DNA from: Thermoplasmatota archaeon
GTDB lineage: Archaea > Thermoplasmatota > E2 > JACPAO01 > JAHFTW01
Direction of reading: 5' to 3'
NCBI GenBank assembly: GCA_041601615.1
Contig: JBFIHX010000001.1
Coordinates: 32,001 to 96,000 of the forward strand
Length of the DNA: 64,000 bases
Part shown: in pieces, positions 14,579 to 46,119 of the stretch
How positions within the stretch are numbered: position 1 is the stretch's first letter
How the letters are laid out: each line of letters opens with the position of its first letter
Position numbers and translations under genes: made by a program
The notes under the pieces: generated by a model
What the model was told of the DNA's origin: nothing
Seen by the model: only the letters and a program-made list of their open reading frames with translations
Databases searched by the model: none

Positions 14579-15294
14579 ACGCGCCTGGCCTCAGGCAGGG
14601 CCGGCATGACGATCAGGTCCTGCTCGAAGCTGTCGGCGGAGGGCGCGGCCAGCACGTGCCAACACACAATCGAAGCCACGGCCCCGATCAGGACAAGAGG
14701 CAACGAGAACCGATACAGCATGCTCTCTATGGCACTGCCGTGGGGTCGAACGAATTCCATCAGGAATGCCGACGCCAGCATAACGGCACCTGCGGCCGTG
14801 ACCCGACCATAGATGAGAGCGGCTTGGGCCCAGCGACGCTTTCTGGCTTCGGTGAAGAACGCCGGAGCCAAGATCGTGGTCCCTTCGTCCGTGACCCAAC
14901 CATAGAAGCGAGCTGCTTGGGTCCAGCGATGCTGTCCACGCCGAGCATGGCCTTCACCGATCGCTGCGAACATCGTGCCCAGGCTGAGCGCGGCAAGGAT
15001 CGAGGCGACGCCCATCCACGTCATATCACCCCCCAAGACAATCCAGAACCCTAGGCCGACGAGGGCCGCAAAGGCCGGAGCAGCAAACCCTCCGACGAGA
15101 AACGCGATGCTTTGTTTGGAGGCACGCCAAGCCCCGATGGCCACCAGGACCGTGCCCACTCCAAGGGGAACCAAGGCCAAGACGAATGCAAGTGGGGAAA
15201 GAATCATCAGTGTGGCGCCCCAAGCGATGCGGCGCAATCCCGATCCCATGCCGGGCGAAACCTTGTAGGGTTCATAATCGACACCAAGGCCCAA
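14575..15294 (-). CDS. Hypothetical membrane protein with internal 31-aa duplication
   Basis: Several hydrophobic segments; RWTQAARFYGWVT / RWAQAALIYGRVT repeat 93 bp apart. Confidence 0.6.
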   Translation of the reverse strand: MGLGVDYEPYKVSPGMGSGLRRIAWGATLMILSPLAFVLALVPLGVGTVLVAIGAWRASKQSIAFLVGGFAAPAFAALVGLGFWIVLGGDMTWMGVASILAALSLGTMFAAIGEGHARRGQHRWTQAARFYGWVTDEGTTILAPAFFTEARKRRWAQAALIYGRVTAAGAVMLASAFLMEFVRPHGSAIESMLYRFSLPLVLIGAVASIVCWHVLAAPSADSFEQDLIVMPALPEARRV

Positions 15295-15348
15295 GGGGGA
15301 CGGACGTGCCTGGCAACACTCTTAGCACGCCGCAACGTCGTCCGCGTC

Positions 15349-15969
15349 GTGGAGGTGCGTGACCTGGGTGTCATGGACTACGGGTCGTGCTTGGAGCTCC
15401 AGCGGCACCTCTTGGCCCAAGTCCAAGCAGGCACCGCCCCCGACACCATCCTCGTCGTCGAACACCCGTTCGTTGCTACCCTAGGCCGCCGCGGCGAGCC
15501 CAGCGATGTGTTCGATCCAAGCTTGCCCGTGTACACCATCGAGCGCGGCGGCAAAGCGACCCTCCACGGCCCCGGCCAACTTGTCATCTACCCCATCGTG
15601 CACCTTGGGGAAGGCAACCGCGACGTGCGCGCCTGGGTGCGACACCTGGAAGGGTTCCTGCATGCAATGCTTGGTGAATTTGGCATCCAAACGCACACCC
15701 GCGAGGACCTGCCGGGAGTCTGGACCGATGCGAGCCAAAAGAAAATCGCCAGCATCGGCATCGCCGTGCAGCGCTGGGTCAGCTTCCACGGAATCGCCGT
15801 GAATGTGACGCTGGCGCCCAAGGAGTTTGAGCGGTTGGATCCTTGTGGGTTAGGGGCGGCGGTGATGACCAATATGGAGCTGGAAGGAGCAGGGGTCGGG
15901 ATGGAGGCCGTGAAGAACTGGGTGCTGGAGCAAGCCGAGGAGCACTTTGAAGGGTTTGCAAAGACGTGA
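15349..15969 (+). CDS. lipB: Lipoyl(octanoyl) transferase
   Basis: VEHPFVATLGR, RGGKATLHGPGQLVIYPI, KIASIGIAV, HGIAVNV, PCG; start inferred. Confidence 0.93.
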   Translation: MEVRDLGVMDYGSCLELQRHLLAQVQAGTAPDTILVVEHPFVATLGRRGEPSDVFDPSLPVYTIERGGKATLHGPGQLVIYPIVHLGEGNRDVRAWVRHLEGFLHAMLGEFGIQTHTREDLPGVWTDASQKKIASIGIAVQRWVSFHGIAVNVTLAPKEFERLDPCGLGAAVMTNMELEGAGVGMEAVKNWVLEQAEEHFEGFAKT

Positions 15970-16095
15970 ACCATTTTCGTTGAAGCGCGAAATCGCGATT
16001 GATTGCGACTACGGCACAAAGACGAGAGGGTTCCTACAGCCCCATGGCGAACGGGCCCCGGAATGAGGGGTGGCATACCGCTCAGAGCCTCAGAA

Positions 16096-16878
16096 CTACG
16101 CCACAAGCGTCACAGGCATCCCCGGCGCGCTGTGCGTCGACAAGCCGGGCCCAGGGGGCTGTAGGAAGCCAGAAACCTCTGCCGTCCCCGCCCCAAACTG
16201 CCAATGCGTATGCTCGCTGATGTGCAGATCCAACCTACCCACCACCTCGCGGTCCTCAACCACGAACAGCGGCAACATCTCCTGTGGCGTCGCGGCGGCC
16301 AAGCGGGGGGAAGTGCCCTCCACGGTTACACTGAAGCCCAGTGCCTGCGCGGACATCGAGGACGACATTGTCGCGGCCGTGCCCACGAGAATCGGCTCCT
16401 GGACCACGTCTCCTGCCAGAAACGGGATGCCTGCCAACGCAAACCACTGCTCCAACAAGGCCCCCTTGACTACGGGAGCGCCGGCAACTGCGTGGTACGT
16501 GGCATTTGCAACCCGTTCATCCTGGGGCGGAACGGCAGGAAACCAGGGCACCAAGAACGAGACCTGTGGTTCCTCGCAAAAGAACGCCACAAACAAGAGC
16601 GTCGCCGACGCCCCCGTAGGGTCTGCATCAGCATAAACATCGGGCGGCAGAGGAGGCATCAGCCCAAAACCATCCGGGACGTAGGGTGCGGCTTGGGCCG
16701 CCGTCACCGGAAAAATCCCAATTTGCTCGCGGCAATCCGACAACATCAGCGGCTCCAGCGGGGCAGGCGTAGGTGCGCCAGGCTCTGTATCCATGCCACC
16801 CACGTCGCTAGAAGGAGACAAGCATCCGGCTAGCAGCGGCGGGAGCAACAAGGCGAGGACGACCCATCGAGTGGCCAT
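16096..16878 (-). CDS. Hypothetical secreted lipoprotein
   Basis: Signal peptide with lipobox LLAGC followed by a Pro-rich linker. Confidence 0.7.
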   Translation of the reverse strand: MATRWVVLALLLPPLLAGCLSPSSDVGGMDTEPGAPTPAPLEPLMLSDCREQIGIFPVTAAQAAPYVPDGFGLMPPLPPDVYADADPTGASATLLFVAFFCEEPQVSFLVPWFPAVPPQDERVANATYHAVAGAPVVKGALLEQWFALAGIPFLAGDVVQEPILVGTAATMSSSMSAQALGFSVTVEGTSPRLAAATPQEMLPLFVVEDREVVGRLDLHISEHTHWQFGAGTAEVSGFLQPPGPGLSTHSAPGMPVTLVA

Positions 16879-16947
16879 GAGCAACCCCGATGGTTGGGCG
16901 GGCATGATGAGCCTATCCTCTCTGGGGTGCCGGGCAAAGGAATCGGT

Positions 16948-17373
16948 TCATTCCTCCTGCCGAGGCCACTGTCAGGCGTTTCGGATGATCAGCATGAGAA
17001 GCACGACCTCCACCCCAGCACCATACCAATAGGGAAGCGGCCACTCCTCTCCAATCACGTTTACAAGCGAATACGGGACATACAGCGCGGCCACAACGAG
17101 GTTTGCCCAGCGATTGATGTTCGCCGGCATGACCACAGAGAGAAAAATCATCAAGGCCGGAATTGACACGGTTACGAGCCCCGCTAACACAAATCCTTGG
17201 GTGATTTCAAAAACGAATACTCTGCCATCCATCAGGTCTTCGAGCACGCCTGGCATATAGAGATGGAAATAGTCAACATGGATGTACAGAAGCATAAATG
17301 ACGCTCAAGCGGCCGCCAACTTTTGCTTCACATTGACCTTGACATCCTCTAACGCCGCTTGGCGGACTTTCAT
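16948..17373 (-). pseudogene. DUF6326-family membrane protein interrupted by two in-frame TGA codons
   Basis: Reads MKVRQAALEDVKVNVKQKLAAA*ASFMLLYIHVDYFHLYMPG...IIRNA*QWPRQEE*; TGA at 17305-17307 and 16972-16974; TTTATA box ~25 nt upstream. Confidence 0.75.
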
Positions 17374-17644
17374 GACTTGTGCCCTGCAGCTTGAAAGTAT
17401 AAACCTGGCGCCAAAGGTCAACCGCCGGCCGAAAGGCAGCGCAGACAAGTGCCTAATTCGGAGGCCGTGGTCATCGTGTCGGATTTCTGTTGGGGGCTTG
17501 GTTTCGTCCGATGAACTGTGTGCGGCGGGCTGCGTGGGTAGCAAGGAGTGGTTTGGGTGGATTGTTATCCTGAGGACGGCCTGCAAATGTGCGTCTCCGA
17601 AGCGCGACTATTCGCCCCCCCCCGGTACAGGTCGGAAGTGTCAT

Positions 17645-17917
17645 TTCCTCCACGGGTAAGATCCAGAAGGTGTCTTTGTTCATACGGAAGATGCTGTGGT
17701 CTACCAGAAAATAGTCGCCAGGAACTTCCTCTTCAATCGCAACGATGGGCGGCCTGCCGCCGGGAATGGGGGTGGTTTGGACGTTCTCATGCGACGTGCT
17801 CTCCAGGCCCCCTTACTTCCAAACACGGTCGAAGATTTCCCCATTGATGTTGAAGCTACTGAAGAGATTGGGACCGCCGTTTCCGACGAAGATGCGCACG
17901 GTGTCGCCGACCTCCGC
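17645..17917 (-). pseudogene. nirK: C-terminal fragment of copper-containing nitrite reductase (NirK/AniA type)
   Basis: Translates [36 protein letters not shown]...ENVQTTPIPGG...VPGDYFLVDHSIFR; in-frame TAA at 17813-17815; N-terminal part absent. Confidence 0.85.
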
Positions 17918-17964
17918 TCGCCCCCCTCCGGCATGGTTATCGATTGCGTGGGGACTCCTCCTGC

Positions 17965-18441
17965 GTGAAGCGGCACCCGGCGTTTCAAGACCTCAGCCGC
18001 GACCACTTCACGGCGCTCCTGGCTTGCCTAAACGTCCGACGCGCCACCGAGGGACATCCATCCGCTCCAACACCAGAGGCGGCAATCGCTCAGTTCGGGC
18101 AACTTTGGCGCAATGAACTAACACATCATTTCGACGAAGAAGACGCCAACATTCAACCCGTCCTAGCTGCGAAAAAAGCCCACACCCAACTGGCTACACT
18201 ACGCCTTGATCACAAGGAGATTCGGGCCGCCATGGAAGCGCTCCACGCCAAAGATCCGGCCCCCACTTGGGCTGTAGCTGCAGAACGCCTACGCGCCCAC
18301 ATCCGGTGGGAAGAAGACGTACTATTCCCTTGGATGCAGGACCACCTCACCGATGAGGAATTGGAACGCATGTTGGCAGCCAGCATCGCCTTTCGCACCA
18401 AAGTTCGAGGGCCAGATTCGGTGAAACCACCAAGGCCCTAG
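17965..18441 (+). CDS. Hemerythrin/HHE cation-binding domain protein
   Basis: [35 protein letters not shown]. Confidence 0.85.
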
Positions 18442-18523
18442 TCCAAGGGATACGATTCGAGCTCCTAGAACCGCTAGGGCTCTGGCGTGGTGGACGGGCA
18501 ACTCTGGACGGTGGCAGGATCCT

Positions 18524-18580
18524 GGTTGAACTGACCCGCCGTGAGCGGGGCGAGTGGTCGCGTTGAGCGATTTGTTGGGC
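18524..18580 (-). mobile_element. Degenerate attC site (R'' and L boxes present, R' lost)
   Basis: Minus strand GCCCAACAAATCGCTCAACGCGAC...CGGGTCAGTTCAACC, homologous to the two intact attC sites but followed by AGGATCC instead of GTTRRRY. Confidence 0.7.
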
Positions 18581-18691
18581 GAAATTCGATGATTCATTGA
18601 ATCCACATGGGCCGTCGCGCGACAGAGGTGTCTGGCCTGAGGCAAGCAAGAAAACACACTCTGTCTTTGGCCTATGTCGAGTGGCGGGGCA

Positions 18692-19078
18692 CTATGTCAT
18701 CAGTGTCAGTTGGCTTCTTCGGATTTCGCGCATCCTCAACAATGTCTCTCGGAGTTCAACCACGCGCGCCGCGTCGCCACCGATGATGAGTACGTCCATG
18801 CAGGTCTCCGGTTCGCAATGCGTGTGCATCAAGCTCAGGACCACGTCATGGAAAGCATGGCGCACGTCTGAGATTTTGAAACTATGTTCGTGCGCGTAGG
18901 TCATTGTGATCGACCCATGCACGTGGCCCTCGGTGGCGCTGTGTTGGCGTTGCAGCAATTCTCGAATGGCGGCCCGCATGAATTCGCTGCGTCCCTGGTA
19001 ACGTCCCTGGTCGATGGCGGCGTCCATTTCGGCGGCCAGTTCGCTCGGGATGCTCATGCTGACAATGCCCATGTTCAT
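18692..19078 (-). CDS. nikR: NikR-family RHH metal-responsive regulator
   Basis: IVSMSIP..L...RSEFMRAAIRE ribbon-helix-helix; HAFHD..SLMHTHC...CMDV metal-binding domain. Confidence 0.88.
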   Translation of the reverse strand: MNMGIVSMSIPSELAAEMDAAIDQGRYQGRSEFMRAAIRELLQRQHSATEGHVHGSITMTYAHEHSFKISDVRHAFHDVVLSLMHTHCEPETCMDVLIIGGDAARVVELRETLLRMREIRRSQLTLMT

Positions 19079-19125
19079 ACGCGAAAACAGCCAATGTTAT
19101 TAACAAATCGCAAAAGGCTATGAAC
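19073..19125. promoter_or_regulatory. Dyad-symmetric operator/promoter region between nikR and the metal ABC operon
   Basis: TGTTATTAACA (19095-19105) flanked by GTTCATA (19073-19079) / TATGAAC (19119-19125). Confidence 0.45.
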
Positions 19126-19146
19126 CAATTGGGGTGGCCACCGCGC

Positions 19147-20043
19147 ATGAAACAGTTCACCCCTCTGCTCTTCGCAGTGCTCATGCTCTCAGGATGCGTC
19201 GGAAACGTGGAGCGCGCCGACTTGGTCGTCGCCAGTTACCCAGCCTACTTCGTCGCTTCCAACCTCGCCGGCGAGGACCTAAGCATCGCCGACCTAAATG
19301 GGGGCGCCCTGCACGGCTTCGAGGCCAGCGCACGCGATCTCGACCAACTGCGAACCTCCAGCCACCTCGTACTTTGGGACGAGGGCCTCGAATCATGGGC
19401 GCACCGCGCCGAAGCCGCTCTCGGCTCCTCCGCGCCAAAAGTCATCGAGATTACCGCATTGCCGGCAGGGGATGATCACCTGGAAGGCGGGGAAGAGGGC
19501 CATGGTGCCGGGCATGACCATGGAAAACTCGACCACGACCCCCATACCTGGAACGACCCCCTCGCCATGCGGGCCAGTGTCCAGGTACTCGAGGCCTACC
19601 TCATCGAGGCCTACCCCGAGTTCGCAGACAACATCGAAACGCGCGCGACGGACCTCAAGCAGCGCCTCGCCGAACTGCACGAGGCCTATGCATCTTCCCT
19701 GTCCGATTGCGCCCGTGACACGGTCGTCACGAACCACGAAGCCTACAACTACATGGCCCAGCGCTACGATTTCCACATATTCGCCCTCCACGGCATCGAA
19801 CCCGGGTCCGAACCGTCCCCCAAGACCGTGGACGAAGCCATCCAGAAGATCAAGGATCTCAAAATCCCTGTCATCTTCATCGAAGAGGGCACCGATTCTG
19901 GTGCCTTGAAGGCAATCCGTGACGAGACCGGCGTCCAAGTTCGCGTTCTCATCACCAGCGAGACCCGACCAGCAACCGGCGACTACATTGACTCGCAGAA
20001 TCGCAACCTGGATGAACTTCGATTCGCGTTGGGCTGCGCTTGA
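19147..20043 (+). CDS. znuA: Zn/Mn ABC transporter substrate-binding lipoprotein (ZnuA/AdcA family)
   Basis: Lipobox LSGC, LHGFE, His-rich loop, DPHTW, NHEAYNY. Confidence 0.88.
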   Translation: MKQFTPLLFAVLMLSGCVGNVERADLVVASYPAYFVASNLAGEDLSIADLNGGALHGFEASARDLDQLRTSSHLVLWDEGLESWAHRAEAALGSSAPKVIEITALPAGDDHLEGGEEGHGAGHDHGKLDHDPHTWNDPLAMRASVQVLEAYLIEAYPEFADNIETRATDLKQRLAELHEAYASSLSDCARDTVVTNHEAYNYMAQRYDFHIFALHGIEPGSEPSPKTVDEAIQKIKDLKIPVIFIEEGTDSGALKAIRDETGVQVRVLITSETRPATGDYIDSQNRNLDELRFALGCA

Positions 20044-20750
20044 GCATCCACGCGACGGATCTCTGCGTCCACTACGGCGACTATTGCGCATTGCATCACA
20101 TCGACTTCCAAGCCGAAGCGGGAGAGTTCATCGGCGTCGTCGGCCCCAACGGTGGTGGCAAGACGACGCTCATGCGTGCCCTCTTGGGCCTGCTGCGCTC
20201 TGCGCATGGCGAGCTCCGCGTCGACGGGCACGTCGCCTACGTCGCCCAAGACGCCGTTCATATGGATCCCAACATTCCGGTATCAGTCATGGAATTCGCA
20301 AACCTCGGCCGCCTGGACCGACGGTTCTGGCGCCGACCTTCGCAGGAAGACCGCGCCCGCATCCAGGAAGCCCTCGAAGAAACAGGCGTCTGGAACCTAC
20401 GGGCGCGGCGCCTCTCAGCACTCAGTGGCGGCCAACGCCAACGCGTTCACCTCGCCCAGGCCTTATGCCAAGACGCGAAGGTCCTGTTGCTGGACGAACC
20501 CACGACCGGCGTCGACCCCAAGAGCCGCCAAGAGCTTTACCAACTTCTGCGGCACTTGAGCCATGACCACGGGATCACCATCATCATGGTCAGCCACGAT
20601 ACCGAAAGTCTCGCCGACATTGCCGATCGGATCATCGTAGTGGACAAGACCAAGCGATTCGACGGCAACGGCCAGGCATACCGGGAGTGGTCTCGAACAG
20701 CACTTGAGCTCCCGGTTGACAACCCGTTCGGCGCGCACGAGGTACCATGA
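20040..20750 (+). CDS. znuC: Zn/Mn ABC transporter ATP-binding protein
   Basis: GPNGGGKTT, LSGGQRQR, LLLDEPT, VSHD. Confidence 0.9.
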   Translation: MSIHATDLCVHYGDYCALHHIDFQAEAGEFIGVVGPNGGGKTTLMRALLGLLRSAHGELRVDGHVAYVAQDAVHMDPNIPVSVMEFANLGRLDRRFWRRPSQEDRARIQEALEETGVWNLRARRLSALSGGQRQRVHLAQALCQDAKVLLLDEPTTGVDPKSRQELYQLLRHLSHDHGITIIMVSHDTESLADIADRIIVVDKTKRFDGNGQAYREWSRTALELPVDNPFGAHEVP

Positions 20751-21553
20751 GCTTCGACCTGTTCCTGACGGAGCCCTACTTTCAGCGCGTCCTTGCGACG
20801 GCCTTGGTCGTCGCGGCCACCTCTGCAGTCATCGGCGTATTCCTCGTCCAACGTGGCATGGCCTTGTTCGGCGATGGCATCGCGCACATGTCCTTTGCTG
20901 GCATCGCGCTTGGCTTCGTTGCGGGGTGGATGCCCTTGGGAGCCGCCATCGCCGTGGCCAGCCTCGGCGCCCTCGCCGTCCAAGAATTACAGCGCCGCAA
21001 TTGGGCCCGCTCCGATGCAGCCCTTGGCATTGTCTACACATCCTGCCTCGCCTTGGGTGTCGTCTTGGTCAGCAGCCAAGGATCGGTCCCGGTGGACGTC
21101 GAGTCGTATCTATTTGGCAACCTGCTTCTGGCGGGCGAACGAGAATTCACTCTAGCCGCAATCATAGCAGTGATTGTCGCCGGCACAGTCACGTTGCTGT
21201 GGAGGCCGTTCGTGCTGCTGTCGTTTGGCGAGGAACGTGCCAAGGTGCAGGGCTTGCCCGCAAAGGGCCTCAACACAATCTTCACGATTCTTACAGCCCT
21301 CGCCGTCGTCGCGTCTGTACGCGTCGTCGGTGTGCTGCTTGTCAGCGGCTTGCTCATCATTCCAGCGTCCGCCGCCAGTCGTCTAGCCCGCAGTATGCGC
21401 CAAGCGGTCCTTCTGAGCATTGCGTTCGCGTTGGGTGCGGTCGTCTTTGGCTTGGCAATCAGTGCCGAGTTCTCATTGGCGAGCGGGGCGACCATTGCGC
21501 TCACCGCCGCCGCCATCTTCGTGGCAACGGGATTTGCGCCCGGACGCAGGTGA
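20747..21553 (+). CDS. znuB: Zn/Mn ABC transporter permease
   Basis: GDGIAHMSFAG, DAALGI, SYLFGNL, VVGVLLVSGLLIIPA. Confidence 0.9.
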   Translation: MSFDLFLTEPYFQRVLATALVVAATSAVIGVFLVQRGMALFGDGIAHMSFAGIALGFVAGWMPLGAAIAVASLGALAVQELQRRNWARSDAALGIVYTSCLALGVVLVSSQGSVPVDVESYLFGNLLLAGEREFTLAAIIAVIVAGTVTLLWRPFVLLSFGEERAKVQGLPAKGLNTIFTILTALAVVASVRVVGVLLVSGLLIIPASAASRLARSMRQAVLLSIAFALGAVVFGLAISAEFSLASGATIALTAAAIFVATGFAPGRR

Positions 21554-21629
21554 TCTTTCGCCACCGGAGCCCGAACGTCGAATGGGGCCGGTTTGCCTCA
21601 TCTCAACGCGTGCGATTTTGGCGAGGCCG

Positions 21630-21710
21630 CCCTAACACTCGAGCTGACCCGTCGCCAGCGAAGCGAGCTTGCGACCTCAGGAAGTGGTCGGGTCGAGTGG
21701 CTTGTTAGAC
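21630..21710 (-). mobile_element. attC recombination site (81 bp)
   Basis: Minus strand GTCTAAC AAGCC ACTCGACCCG...CGGGTCAGC TCGAGT GTTAGGG; L'' carries the extra unpaired base; R'' overlaps the TAA stop of the upstream gene. Confidence 0.88.
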
Positions 21711-22094
21711 AGCGCGTTTTACTCTCGTTTGCTGCTGGGTCAGCAACCAAGCGATGCGGCGGTGCGAAGCGAAATGATGAATCACAATTCCACTCGCGAA
21801 CAGGAGGCTAGCAACGCTCCACCCCGCGAGGATGAAGCCGCCAAGTCCCGCCACAAAGACGACGATCTCAATGGCAAGGCGAGTCGCGCCCCCTACCTCC
21901 ACAGGTGCATGCCCCTTGGAGCTTGGATCTTCGGGGACGCGAAAAATCACCCACGCGACCACGCCCACGGTGGGCAACCCGGCCGCCAACAGAAGGCGTG
22001 CCCATCCTGAGGTTGCCTGCAAACCAATTAGCGTGAGGCCGACGATTGCGGCAAGCTCGAGAGTAAACCGAAGAGCAAGGTTCGCGGGGTTCAT
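21705..22094 (-). CDS. YrdB/DUF2568-family membrane protein (gene cassette 2)
   Basis: NLALRFTLELAA...W..F.VP.DP...RLAIE motif; bounded by two attC sites. Confidence 0.8.
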   Translation of the reverse strand: MNPANLALRFTLELAAIVGLTLIGLQATSGWARLLLAAGLPTVGVVAWVIFRVPEDPSSKGHAPVEVGGATRLAIEIVVFVAGLGGFILAGWSVASLLFASGIVIHHFASHRRIAWLLTQQQTRVKRAV

Positions 22095-22158
22095 GTGTGG
22101 TACTGCGGGGGGCATTCTCCAACCACAGTCAATGGAAGGCGGTGCCACGCTTAGCGCT

Positions 22159-22224
22159 GCCTAACGGTCGAACTGACCCGCTCCGGAGCGAAGCGGAGGA
22201 GTCGGGTTGAGTGACTTGTTAGCT
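22159..22224 (-). mobile_element. attC recombination site (66 bp)
   Basis: Minus strand AGCTAAC AAGTC ACTCAACCCG-A-CTCC...GGAG-CGGGTCAGT TCGACC GTTAGGC; folds with two extrahelical bases at the canonical positions. Confidence 0.9.
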
Positions 22225-22226
22225 GG

Positions 22227-22682
22227 TCAAGATTGAAGCCCGATGCGGCCGGAACCGCAAGTTAGGTCAACCACGATGGCAATCGCGGTGATTGCAAACA
22301 CGCCGAGAACTGCTTGCCACATCTTGTAGGAACTGAAATGATACCATCGGCGCAGCTCAGGGTATTCCGTATCATTGCGTCCGGCTGTCGCATGAATAAC
22401 GGCGAGGCCATTGGCTGCGTCCTTCTCGAAAGCCTCCAAATGCTTGCCGGCGATAACTTCGTGCAGCCGGTGTTTCGCCATCAACTGCATGGACGCCAGG
22501 GCGACCAGGAAGGACAGGAGCGCGGCCACCAGTCGTGGGCCGCGTGAAATATCCGCTCCGAGCAATATCGAAAACAAGAATGCTTGAGCGGTTAGGCTCA
22601 ACACAGGAGTCTGCCACAACAGCGTATCAAGGCTTGTGCGGCGATCCGCCAGTACGGCGTATTGGCGTTTATCGATGGACAC
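22227..22682 (-). CDS. Hypothetical membrane protein (gene cassette 1)
   Basis: 151 aa, about 3 TM segments; starts 39 nt after the GTTAGCT core G and ends 2 nt before attC. Confidence 0.75.
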   Translation of the reverse strand: MSIDKRQYAVLADRRTSLDTLLWQTPVLSLTAQAFLFSILLGADISRGPRLVAALLSFLVALASMQLMAKHRLHEVIAGKHLEAFEKDAANGLAVIHATAGRNDTEYPELRRWYHFSSYKMWQAVLGVFAITAIAIVVDLTCGSGRIGLQS

Positions 22683-22714
22683 AGATTGTGAGGGGCGCCA
22701 TAGTTCTTGAACCC

Positions 22715-22733
22715 AGCTAACTTGGTATTATCC
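22715..22733 (-). mobile_element. attI-like primary recombination site (GGATAAT ACCAA GTTAGCT)
   Basis: Same layout as class 1 attI1 (CCCTAAA ACAAA GTTRRRY); GTTAGCTGG is the exact reverse complement of the cassette-1 attC end CCAGCTAAC. Confidence 0.65.
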
Positions 22734-22834
22734 CGCCTCCTTGGTATTATCCCGCCTCCTTGGTATTATCCCGCCTCCTTGGTATTATCCCGCCTCCTTG
22801 GTATTATCCCGCCTCCTTGGTATTATCCCGCATC
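22721..22834 (+). repeat. Tandem repeat, 6 x 19 bp (CTTGGTATTATCCCGCCTC), last copy with one mismatch
   Basis: Directly visible; no spacers between copies. Confidence 0.97.
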
Positions 22835-22880
22835 AGCCCCTTCTTAGTATCGTCCATTCCCATTTTTTTAGCACCGACCA

Positions 22881-22996
22881 GCGGACATGTCCAAAACTTG
22901 CCGAGGCCACATACAAGAAAAATATTTGCGTAGTCTGGCATATCGCAAATATTAACATGTAACTAAAACTTGCCAGGCGCCACTGGACATGTCCGC
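22881..22996. other. AT-rich element with nested inverted repeats
   Basis: GCGGACATGTCCA (22881-22893)/TGGACATGTCCGC (22984-22996); AATATTTGCG (22921-22930)/CGCAAATATT (22944-22953); AAAACTTGCC direct repeat at 22893 and 22965. Confidence 0.8.
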
Positions 22997-23140
22997 CCCA
23001 CACCCCCCAGTTTCCCACCCCCCATCCAAATTCATCAAGTAACGCATTACCCAAAATATTCAATAGAACCCACACCCCGCCAATAAAGCCGCCTCCAAAC
23101 CCACCCCGTTCAAATCACGCCCACCCCAGTCCACCCATAG

Positions 23141-23968
23141 ATGCGAACGCGCGTAGCCCTCTACACCCGCGTCAGCACGGAAGACCAAGCCAAAGAGGGA
23201 TTCAGCCTCGACGCGCAGCTGGATCGGCTCCAGAAGTACGCCGCGGCGCAAGACTGGGACATCGTCGACGCGTACGTGGACGAGGGCCAGAGCGGGCGCA
23301 CCACGAAGCGCCCCGAATACCAACGGATGCTTGCGGACCGCGAGCGTTGGGACACAATCCTTGTTCTGAAGATGGACCGCATCCACCGCAACAGCCGCAA
23401 CTTCATGGGCATGATGGACGCCCTGACGCGGGAGAACAAGGGATTTGCTAGCGTCACAGAGAGCCTGGACACCAGCACCGCCATGGGACGCTTCGTCATG
23501 GACATCATCCAACGCATCGCACAACTGGAGTCGGAGCAAATCGGCGAGCGCGTGTTTGTTGGCATGGAGCAGAAAGCCAAAACCTCCGGTGGCAGTCTCG
23601 GCAAGCCCGCGCCCTTCGGCTACGTCTACGGCGAAGACAGCGTGCTTCAGGTGGTCGCGGAGGAGGCGCCACATGTGCGATTCCTGTTCGAGACCTTCCG
23701 CGACGGCGCCGGCAAGCAGGCTCTTGCGGACGCGCTGAACGAACAGGGCGTGCCCACGCGCCGCAACACGATCTGGACGGTCTGGAACGTCACAGGCATC
23801 CTCTCGAACCCCACGTACGCCGGCGCGCTGCCGTGGGGTGAGCAATTGCAGATCGGCGCACACGAGCCCATCATTGGGCCCAAGCTGTTCAATCAAGTCC
23901 AGGATCGATTGCAAAGTACGTCCACCAAACGAACGTTTGTGCGGCTGCCTCAGGAGACGCTGTCTTAG
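23141..23968 (+). CDS. Serine recombinase (resolvase catalytic domain plus recombinase domain, no zinc ribbon/coiled coil)
   Basis: YTRVSTEDQ (catalytic Ser), DEGQSG...RP, KMDRIHR, APFGY, ILSNPTYAG, HEPII; 275 aa. Confidence 0.93.
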   Translation: MRTRVALYTRVSTEDQAKEGFSLDAQLDRLQKYAAAQDWDIVDAYVDEGQSGRTTKRPEYQRMLADRERWDTILVLKMDRIHRNSRNFMGMMDALTRENKGFASVTESLDTSTAMGRFVMDIIQRIAQLESEQIGERVFVGMEQKAKTSGGSLGKPAPFGYVYGEDSVLQVVAEEAPHVRFLFETFRDGAGKQALADALNEQGVPTRRNTIWTVWNVTGILSNPTYAGALPWGEQLQIGAHEPIIGPKLFNQVQDRLQSTSTKRTFVRLPQETLS

Positions 23969-45666: not shown

Positions 45667-45739
45667 GGGCTGGTAGTCTAGGGGTTATGACATCGCTTTT
45701 ACAAGGCGAGGATCGTCGGTTCAATTCCGACCCAGCCCA
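45667..45739 (+). tRNA. tRNA-Val (anticodon TAC)
   Basis: GGGCTGG/CCAGCCC acceptor stem, TCGCT-TTTACAA-GGCGA anticodon arm, GGTTCAATTCC T arm; CCA not encoded. Confidence 0.95.
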
Positions 45740-45797
45740 CTCCCACCAAAGGGACAACACTCGCCTCCGACAAAGACGAGTTCATTCGCACCCCCAT

Positions 45798-45870
45798 AGC
45801 CCCCTAGTGTAGTGGTCAATCATCTGGGATTCTGGTTCCTGGGACTGCGGTTCGAATCCGCAGGGGGCTA
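45798..45870 (+). tRNA. tRNA-Gln (anticodon CTG)
   Basis: AGCCCCC/GGGGGCT acceptor stem (A1-U72, archaeal Gln type), loop TTCTGGT, GGTTCGAATCC; followed by a T tract. Confidence 0.93.
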
Positions 45871-46119
45871 TTTTGTGCACTGTGGCACTCGTGTCGCTCC
45901 TGATTTTTTCAGCTTAAGCGGCGCGGGTGCTGCTGTTTTTTGGCCCCGGCTCGAACGCGTTTTCGGCTGTTTATGGAGAAAAAACCCATGCGCCAAAGCG
46001 CCGCTTGGCCCATTACAGACTTGGGTTCTTCTTGCGCGGTCTTGCCCGCGAGGCTCCTTCGATTCTGCGGCGACTTTTTTTGAGCCTGTTTTTCGCCTCG
46101 GTCTGGTCGATTCTTCGAC

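Follow-up and report, generated by a model that had tools for sequence, protein, structure and literature searches.

A gene-cassette array in a lineage-specific insertion of a Thermoplasmatota genome, most likely served in trans by an integron integrase

The stretch of DNA analyzed here (the window) comprises 64,000 nucleotides of contig JBFIHX010000001.1 (positions 32,001 to 96,000; contig C1 below) from the Thermoplasmatota assembly GCA_041601615.1. Its minus strand carries a small array of integron-type gene cassettes bounded by attC recombination sites, and a serine recombinase gene lies divergently beside the head of this array. [quoted passage not shown] We regard the array as a CALIN within a lineage-specific insertion of ~6.9 kb, most likely served in trans by the integron integrase (IntI), with a probability of about 0.85.

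The assembly is a metagenome-assembled genome (MAG) of 2.79 Mb in 30 contigs (93% complete, 0.28% contamination). It contains an archaeal fragment of small-subunit rRNA (469 bits) and no bacterial one, and the genes of the window are syntenic with those of MAGs titled Thermoplasmatota or Thermoplasmata, in agreement with the archaeal origin already proposed for the array. The features of the array are given below in window coordinates, with open reading frame abbreviated as ORF. Scores for attC refer to a covariance model, R1, built from 40 well-formed attC sites of this genome, all from outside the window.

23141..23968, plus strand: resident serine recombinase, 275 aa (PF00239, E 8e-38; PF07508, E 1e-16)
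22721..22831, minus strand: head of the array, a perfect tandem repeat of the 19-bp unit GGGATAATACCAAGGAGGC (minus-strand reading), found with Tandem Repeats Finder (TRF)
22165..22720, minus strand: cassette 1, 556 nt, which starts TTAGCTGG... and continues with an ORF and attC a1
22682-22227, minus strand: ORF of cassette 1, 151 aa, membrane-like, with a weak 8xMP match below the cut-off
22224-22159, minus strand: attC a1, intact (R1 72.9 bits, E 6e-16; R'' AGCTAAC ... R' GTTAGGC)
21636..22164, minus strand: cassette 2, 529 nt, with one ORF and attC a2
22148-21705, minus strand: ORF of cassette 2, 147 aa, DUF2568, its TAA stop within R'' GTCTAAC of a2
21710-21630, minus strand: attC a2, intact, with a long variable loop (R1 46.2 bits, E 4e-9; R'' GTCTAAC ... 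R' GTTAGGG)
18581..21629: 'cassette 3', 3.05 kb, with metal-uptake genes (Pfam)
19120-20043, 20040-20750 and 20747-21553, plus strand: ZnuA/ZnuC/ZnuB-type metal ABC transporter (Pfam)
19078-18692, minus strand: NikR-like regulator (Pfam)
18580-18519, minus strand: attC a3, degenerate (R1 46.6 bits, E 3e-9; non-pairs marked at the R boxes)

The secondary structure of R1, i.e. the pairing of R'' with R' and of L'' with L', was written by hand and then checked by pair counts; RNAalifold alone returned only six L-box pairs from the alignment of the 40 sites. In this alignment, 88.9% of the cells were paired, and nine of the 19 pairs showed changes on both sides. Its covariation score was reached by none of 500 shuffles, and pairing went down to 17-43% in controls with slid partners. 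Pair 17-68 is A-C on the top strand in eight of the 40 sites, equivalent to G-T on the bottom strand, which fits folding of attC from the bottom strand. Alignment column 16 (top C, bottom G) has no partner in the hand-specified structure backed by pair counts. In the bottom-strand fold of a1, T58 is bulged and T50/G51 are unpaired on the R''-L'' arm; the extrahelical bases of the window sites occupy what we take to be the canonical positions. Bottom-strand fold energies gave z-scores of -1.42 for a1 and -3.3 for a2. The former is weak alone, so that the case for attC rests on covariation rather than on energy.

With filters off, R1 detected exactly three attC sites in the window (E of the next best match 4.7), all of them where they had been placed before, and the positions and complementarities reported earlier for the minus strand were all correct. 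Each of the three sites conforms in sequence and structure to a model that was built without them. The third had been called a broken attC. It indeed retains its L boxes but has R'' GCCCAAC, with CCAAC where YTAAC is expected, and has lost the GTT of R' (...CAACC AGGATCC). The distances from a1 to a2 (449 nt) and from a2 to a3 (3.05 kb) agree with the definition of CALINs, which calls for two or more attC sites separated by less than 4 kb. A profile search (nhmmer) with the three window sites returned 55 similar sites (E < 0.01) on 15 contigs of the genome, and R1 likewise returned 55 attC sites over the genome at E <= 0.01; the window sites belong to the genome's own attC family. Rfam, which contains no attC family, yielded only two tRNAs over the window at gathering thresholds.

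G|TT junctions, the signature of recombination by IntI, mark the cassette ends, and each intact cassette begins with a sequence complementary to its own R''. For cassette 1, GTTAGCTGG at the head faces CCAGCTAAC with nine contiguous complementary bases. Within the 2.79-Mb genome (5.57 Mb counting both strands), this 9-mer has only two copies, one at the head and one as the reverse reading of cassette 1's own R'', and the complementarity is therefore not due to chance. The ends of cassette 2 are complementary at 11 of 12 positions. Both intact cassettes consist of a small ORF of membrane type and an attC. Both boundaries, as well as the stop codon of cassette 2 inside R'' (TAA in GTCTAAC), were thus as previously described. 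For 'cassette 3', the start TTAGGGCGG matches the R'' of a3 (CGCCC-AAC) at eight of nine bases, with one base missing, and the 3-kb Znu unit may originally have been a genuine cassette of unusually large size. This one cassette-like unit holds a whole metal-uptake operon. Its ZnuA shares 63% identity with a homologue in a genome of the same genus, which sits on a different contig there, and has matches in 11 of 40 related genomes (the relatives), a patchy distribution as expected of accessory DNA.

The model TIGR02249 (integron integrase) has a single match in the genome, at 415.8 bits against a cut-off of 265. It corresponds to an IntI of 436 aa in an open frame without stops on contig C16 (C16:15954-17264). 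The same contig carries 11 attC sites on the strand opposite to intI, and the junction of its first cassette, GGAGGAG|TTATCCTGC, lies ~170 bp from where intI starts and is complementary to the R'' of the first attC. Integrase gene, attI junction and attC sites together make up a complete integron, and this integrase is the only intact one of the genome. No second intI or remnant was found by tblastn with IntI (E <= 10), including the surroundings of the window array on C1. Matches to PF00589 in this genome are confined to C16, C13 and C8, and neither this model nor TIGR02249 has a match on C1, which bears out the statement that the window encodes no tyrosine recombinase. The array is therefore a cluster with no integron integrase gene adjoining it: the divergent gene encodes a serine recombinase, and the only IntI lies on C16. 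A 168-bp copy of the C16 intI-attI spacer (C1:4090-4257, 95.8% identical, gene-less), which heads another array, ties C16 to the contig of the window. Among the 40 relatives, eight have an IntI above the cut-off.

Comparison with the same-genus genome, whose recombinase is 90% identical, delimits the insertion. At this spot it has a 515-bp AT-rich spacer from which the repeat unit and all the inserted genes are missing. The alignment of the window's intergenic sequence to this spacer stops ~30 bp before the tandem repeat; together with the end of the lipoate-ligase-like gene (15112-15969), this places the insertion at ~15970-22860, i.e. ~6.9 kb within the short intergenic stretch that separates the lipoate-ligase-like gene from the recombinase gene. 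The right 4.3 kb of the insertion is the attC-bounded array, and the left 2.5 kb has no R1 match. Locus comparisons were based on the best 80 recombinase loci (1.06 Mb), nearly all from MAGs with Thermoplasmata-type or other archaeal titles (two titles were bacterial). A lipoate-ligase-like gene is present upstream, on the same strand, at 24 of these loci; it is separated from the recombinase gene by 112-555 bp at 23 loci and by 1524 bp at the remaining one, as against 7.2 kb in the window. Homologues of the cassette ORFs, NikR, ZnuA/B, the three left-hand ORFs or IntI were found at none of the 80 loci. The inserted genes are all single-copy in the genome. We detected neither direct or inverted repeats bounding the 6.9-kb segment nor a transposase or other mobility gene inside it.

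The gene beside the head is, as had been noted, that of a 275-aa serine recombinase (23141-23968). Its catalytic motif YTRVSTEDQ is intact, and it is the sole PF00239 match of the genome. The protein consists of a Resolvase and a Recombinase domain, with no third Pfam domain and no zinc ribbon or coiled coil, and aligns to positions 6-237 of the 542 positions of the CcrB model. It thus has the catalytic and Recombinase domains of large serine recombinases but lacks their C-terminal zinc-ribbon/coiled-coil region. A length of 275 aa is natural for its family, since the best 120 homologues (of 3623 candidates, 3115 matched at E <= 1e-20) all have both domains within 270-345 aa. In comparison with CcrB, CcrC and XisF, with which it has the two domains in common, the gene is chromosomal, syntenic and vertically inherited rather than element-borne. 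A recombinase relative is encoded in 464 of the 497 candidate contig stretches and matched in 32 of the 40 relatives (three of the 32 weakly or partially). Identity falls with kinship, from 90% within the genus to 63-77% within the family and 51-59% within the class, and family-level relatives have DUF357, HerA and a Hef-like helicase-nuclease downstream. The recombinase gene, conserved throughout the class with lipoate ligase, DUF357, HerA and Hef as its core neighbours, is a vertically inherited, syntenic resident, a neighbour of the array but not a part of it. At E <= 1, R1 found attC at only one of the 80 loci, 6.2 kb upstream on the recombinase's own strand, which differs from the arrangement in the window. 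Among the 40 relatives, recombinase and attC occur together in 12, the recombinase alone in 20, attC alone in four, and neither in four.

The head of the array includes a feature absent from the previous account. TRF reported a period of 19 bp with 5.8 copies and 100% matches; the final partial copy ends ...GGGATAATACCAAG at the crossover G (22721), and the TT of the cassette follows at 22720-22719. A search for the 19-bp unit with up to four mismatches in the genome and 129 loci (1.44 Mb) returned only three matches with four mismatches each, none of them near a recombinase gene. Heads of other arrays were located by searching upstream of each attC for the complement of its extended R''. Within arrays such matches fall on the preceding attC, and the starts of arrays share a conserved left flank. 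A weight matrix was built from five intI-adjacent attI sites (that of C16 and those of the relatives G012, G014, G018 and G019). On this genome, eight sites scored 25-36, with the next at 13.7, and all eight are cassette heads (C16:15782, C1:4093, C5:150003, C13:51342, C5:18826, C25:1382, C13:32779 and C1:30225), seven of them without intI. Judged by this matrix, with a score of 8.5 and rank 48 of 70,257 GTT sites, the window head is above background yet outside the attI-type class. The intI-adjacent sites conserve GGAAAACC..TGAA..AG|TT, and the part GGAAAACC...TGAA is missing from the window head, which is consequently not a cognate attI. Of the attI-like head proposed earlier, the G|TT crossover is real, as in the attI sites of the clade, whereas the left flank is not that of the eight other heads.

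The window head resembles some other cassette heads of this genome in a shorter motif. A genome-wide scan with its 16-mer plus GTT found three sites with at least 15 of 19 matches, two of which are other cassette heads (C7:103657 and C5:76537), and a third such head (C4:188072) matches at 14 of 19. Its proximal AT-rich box, AATACCAAG|TT, is comparable to AATAACAAG|TT in the attI of G014 and G018. A second, shorter motif, GGYGGGATAATWMCWWG|TT, is present at four cassette heads of this genome; the tandem array of 5.8 copies in the window is an amplification of it. We conclude that the window head represents a genuine junction of the IntI type, set in a short AT-rich motif that recurs, and not a cognate attI. 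A link between the two head classes that suggested itself by eye (the 19-bp unit as attI minus GTG) resisted an objective formulation and was dropped. The relatives repeat the multi-head pattern; one of them, G026, lacks an IntI match and has two attI-type heads of identical sequence. We tentatively consider that one IntI may serve many landing pads in trans, the eight attI-type heads and those with shorter motifs forming a distributed system. Should these heads be real sites that IntI recognises in trans as double-stranded DNA, integrons in this Thermoplasmatota family would be such systems, and the window repeat would be an amplified secondary attI, possibly also serving as promoter and ribosome-binding region of the first cassette.

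In the preferred explanation, the tyrosine integrase of C16 would act in trans on folded bottom strands and place the cassettes. The first insertion would have used a non-canonical double-stranded site, of the attG or weak-attI type, rather than a cognate attI. Cassette 2 would still be excisable through a1 x a2, and cassette 1 perhaps through head x a1, provided that the head is accepted by IntI. Decay of its attC would now have fixed the Znu segment, because a3 has lost both R boxes. The serine recombinase would take no part.

Several observations weigh against this explanation. The integrase lies on a separate contig of a MAG, its linkage to the array being given by binning, the shared attC family and the 168-bp spacer copy. 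The window head is not a cognate attI in view of its matrix score and rank; moreover, its tandem repetition is not predicted by simple insertion at a secondary site, and the repeat unit as target would imply AAG|GAG instead of GWT as the pre-insertion sequence. At its distal end (a3), the array does not run into the repeat unit, and the 2.5 kb beyond a3 is devoid of attC, so that more than cassette insertion has shaped the 6.9-kb segment. R1 is tuned to the attC type of this genome, and unlike attC sites near the recombinase genes of distant relatives could escape it. Finally, no recombination activity was seen. Excision was looked up in four public runs of one study, available as assembled contigs, two of them possibly the source of the assembly. 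Their contigs end at a1 and inside the tandem repeat, speak neither for nor against excision, and give no confirmation of the repeat copy number. Five candidate joints in these contigs, with sides of 20-21 nt between attC sites, were rejected as excised circles, being cross-matches of the repeated attC.

Some of these points would be accommodated if the array had been assembled elsewhere (in the C16 integron or in another CALIN) and had arrived within the 6.9-kb block by homologous or illegitimate recombination or on an unrecognised element, with no IntI insertion at this spot; the head junction would then be older than the arrival. The same-genus empty site, which lacks repeat unit and inserted genes alike, the left 2.5 kb devoid of attC, and the failure of a3 to continue into the repeat unit all suit such an origin, as do the related heads on C7, C5 and C4, whose motif may travel with cassettes or mark a preferred site. 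Against it stand the missing terminal repeats, the missing transposase or mobility gene and the single-copy state of every gene in the segment, and we hold this origin to be possible but doubtful. It differs from the preferred explanation in origin only; the CALIN identity and the role of the recombinase as a bystander would be unchanged. Alternatively, a complete integron could have stood here and lost its intI, the tandem-repeat head being the leftover attI. This idea is suited by the start of the array at a defined G|TT head and by the direct repeats that precede it, which we presume to be loosely like the integrase-binding direct repeats of attI1, and seven other arrays of the genome are headed by a true attI-type sequence without intI. 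Nevertheless, tblastn with IntI was empty near the array, the ~30 bp between the repeat and the sequence alignable to the same-genus spacer leaves no room for a gene remnant, the head fails the attI matrix of the clade, and, among the 80 related loci, 23 have the short 112-555 bp gap and none has an integron at this place. We consider loss of intI at this locus improbable.

Least probable by far is that the serine recombinase itself recombines the cassettes in place of IntI, in a capture platform of an undescribed kind. The divergent position of its gene beside the head, its intact catalytic motif and its being the only serine recombinase of the genome are in its favour. Yet the gene occupies the same neighbourhood at 24 of the 80 loci with no cassettes at all, the expected recurrence of attC arrays beside its homologues came down to a single locus in 80, and 20 of the 32 relatives with the gene show no attC. 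In addition, attC sites of the same type occur at many places of the genome away from this gene and beside a bona fide IntI, G|TT junctions with folded-hairpin sites are the signature of tyrosine integrases, and the upstream region of the recombinase has different, conserved palindromes of its own. According to the sequence-only reading, the coupling would be refuted by an IntI elsewhere in the genome together with recombinase homologues that lack association with attC arrays; both were observed, the former as the intact IntI of C16. The proposed coupling to the serine recombinase has to be abandoned, and the other explanation, a CALIN beside a conserved, syntenic recombinase and served in trans, is the one retained.

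Integrons and CALINs of Archaea were described in 75 MAGs from nine phyla (2022, Sci Adv; PMC9668308), most of them CALINs, and action in trans was proposed for their cassettes. The array shares with these CALINs (i) two or more attC sites spaced by less than 4 kb and lacking an adjoining intI, (ii) an archaeal MAG with attC clusters on other contigs as well, and (iii) cassettes presumed to be acted on in trans. A few complete integrons alongside many CALINs, as reported there, are also seen in the present genome. In contrast to those CALINs, the integrase, its attI and the CALIN are tied here to one genome, and the insertion site is set against 23 empty sites in relatives. The string 'Thermoplasmat' is absent from the main text of PMC9668308, the figure and supplements of which may list the phylum. 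Among the matches listed in a literature search for Thermoplasmatota and integron, neither term appeared in title or abstract.

The second report (Loot et al., bioRxiv 10.1101/2022.09.11.507474) describes insertion of cassettes by bacterial IntI at GWT sites of the genome (attG), which yields SALINs (single sites) as well as small CALINs. In common with that system, the window has a small intergenic array remote from intI and attI, a crossover that follows G, and neither a transposon nor an intI pseudogene nearby. The reported system involves E. coli with IntI1, IntI2 and IntI3 and the GWT consensus, whereas here recombination by an archaeal-hosted integrase is predicted. Unlike attG, the left flank in the window consists of a 19-bp motif, repeated 5.8 times and similar to three other heads, which points to a sequence preference beyond that of GWT. 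Substitution of a serine recombinase for IntI would have amounted to a novel kind of gene capture, and this claim is removed by the evidence. We are left with a well-anchored group of orphan cassettes on an archaeal chromosome, with an integrase in the same genome, a clean case in which to study the spread of cassettes beyond attI in Archaea. For bench work, concrete features are provided by the head motifs that recur, by the multi-attI architecture and by the amplified head.

The left part of the insertion and the region upstream of the recombinase gene contain the following further features.

15970..18518: rest of the insertion, with no attC detectable by R1
16905-16096, minus strand: ORF of 269 aa in the left part of the insertion
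17295-16972, minus strand: DUF6326 (Pfam)
17944-18441, plus strand: hemerythrin (Pfam)
22883-22892 and 22985-22994: two GGACATGTCC palindromes, 102 bp apart, upstream of the recombinase gene

Between the DUF6326 and hemerythrin genes, 17296-17943 (650 bp) contains short overlapping frames only and may be a decayed gene. Some 22 kb from the array, tRNA-Val(TAC) and tRNA-Gln(CTG) lie side by side at 45667-45871 (plus strand); no integrated element was seen beside this pair.

Elsewhere in the genome, identical cassette flanks occur at the ends of different contigs (C6:250-335 with C11:75020-75105, and C16:97-202 with C25:6991-7091). It follows that the small contigs C21, C25 and C26 and the ends of C11, C6 and C16 are probably assembler-broken pieces of one larger cassette array. 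On C13, a weak PF00589 match (C13:22281-22610, minus strand, 29.1 bits, in a 384-aa frame) lies ~1 kb from a degenerate attC (C13:23678-23742).

The two palindromes upstream of the recombinase gene, at -258 and -156 from its start, account for two of the three copies of GGACATGTCC in the 2.79-Mb genome. The same-genus spacer has three GGACATGTC(C) palindromes (L045, 5882, 5987 and 6091) at -366, -261 and -157. With a spacing of ~102-105 bp in both genomes, the palindromes are a conserved part of the recombinase intergenic region and may serve the recombinase itself for binding or regulation. Of 41 genomes, four have a match above the cut-off of the archaeal XerA model NF040815; all four are of family f2 and among the eight relatives with no recombinase match. 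In the present genome, IntI itself gives the best matches to this model. Within this family, the role of XerA may be filled by the resident serine recombinase.

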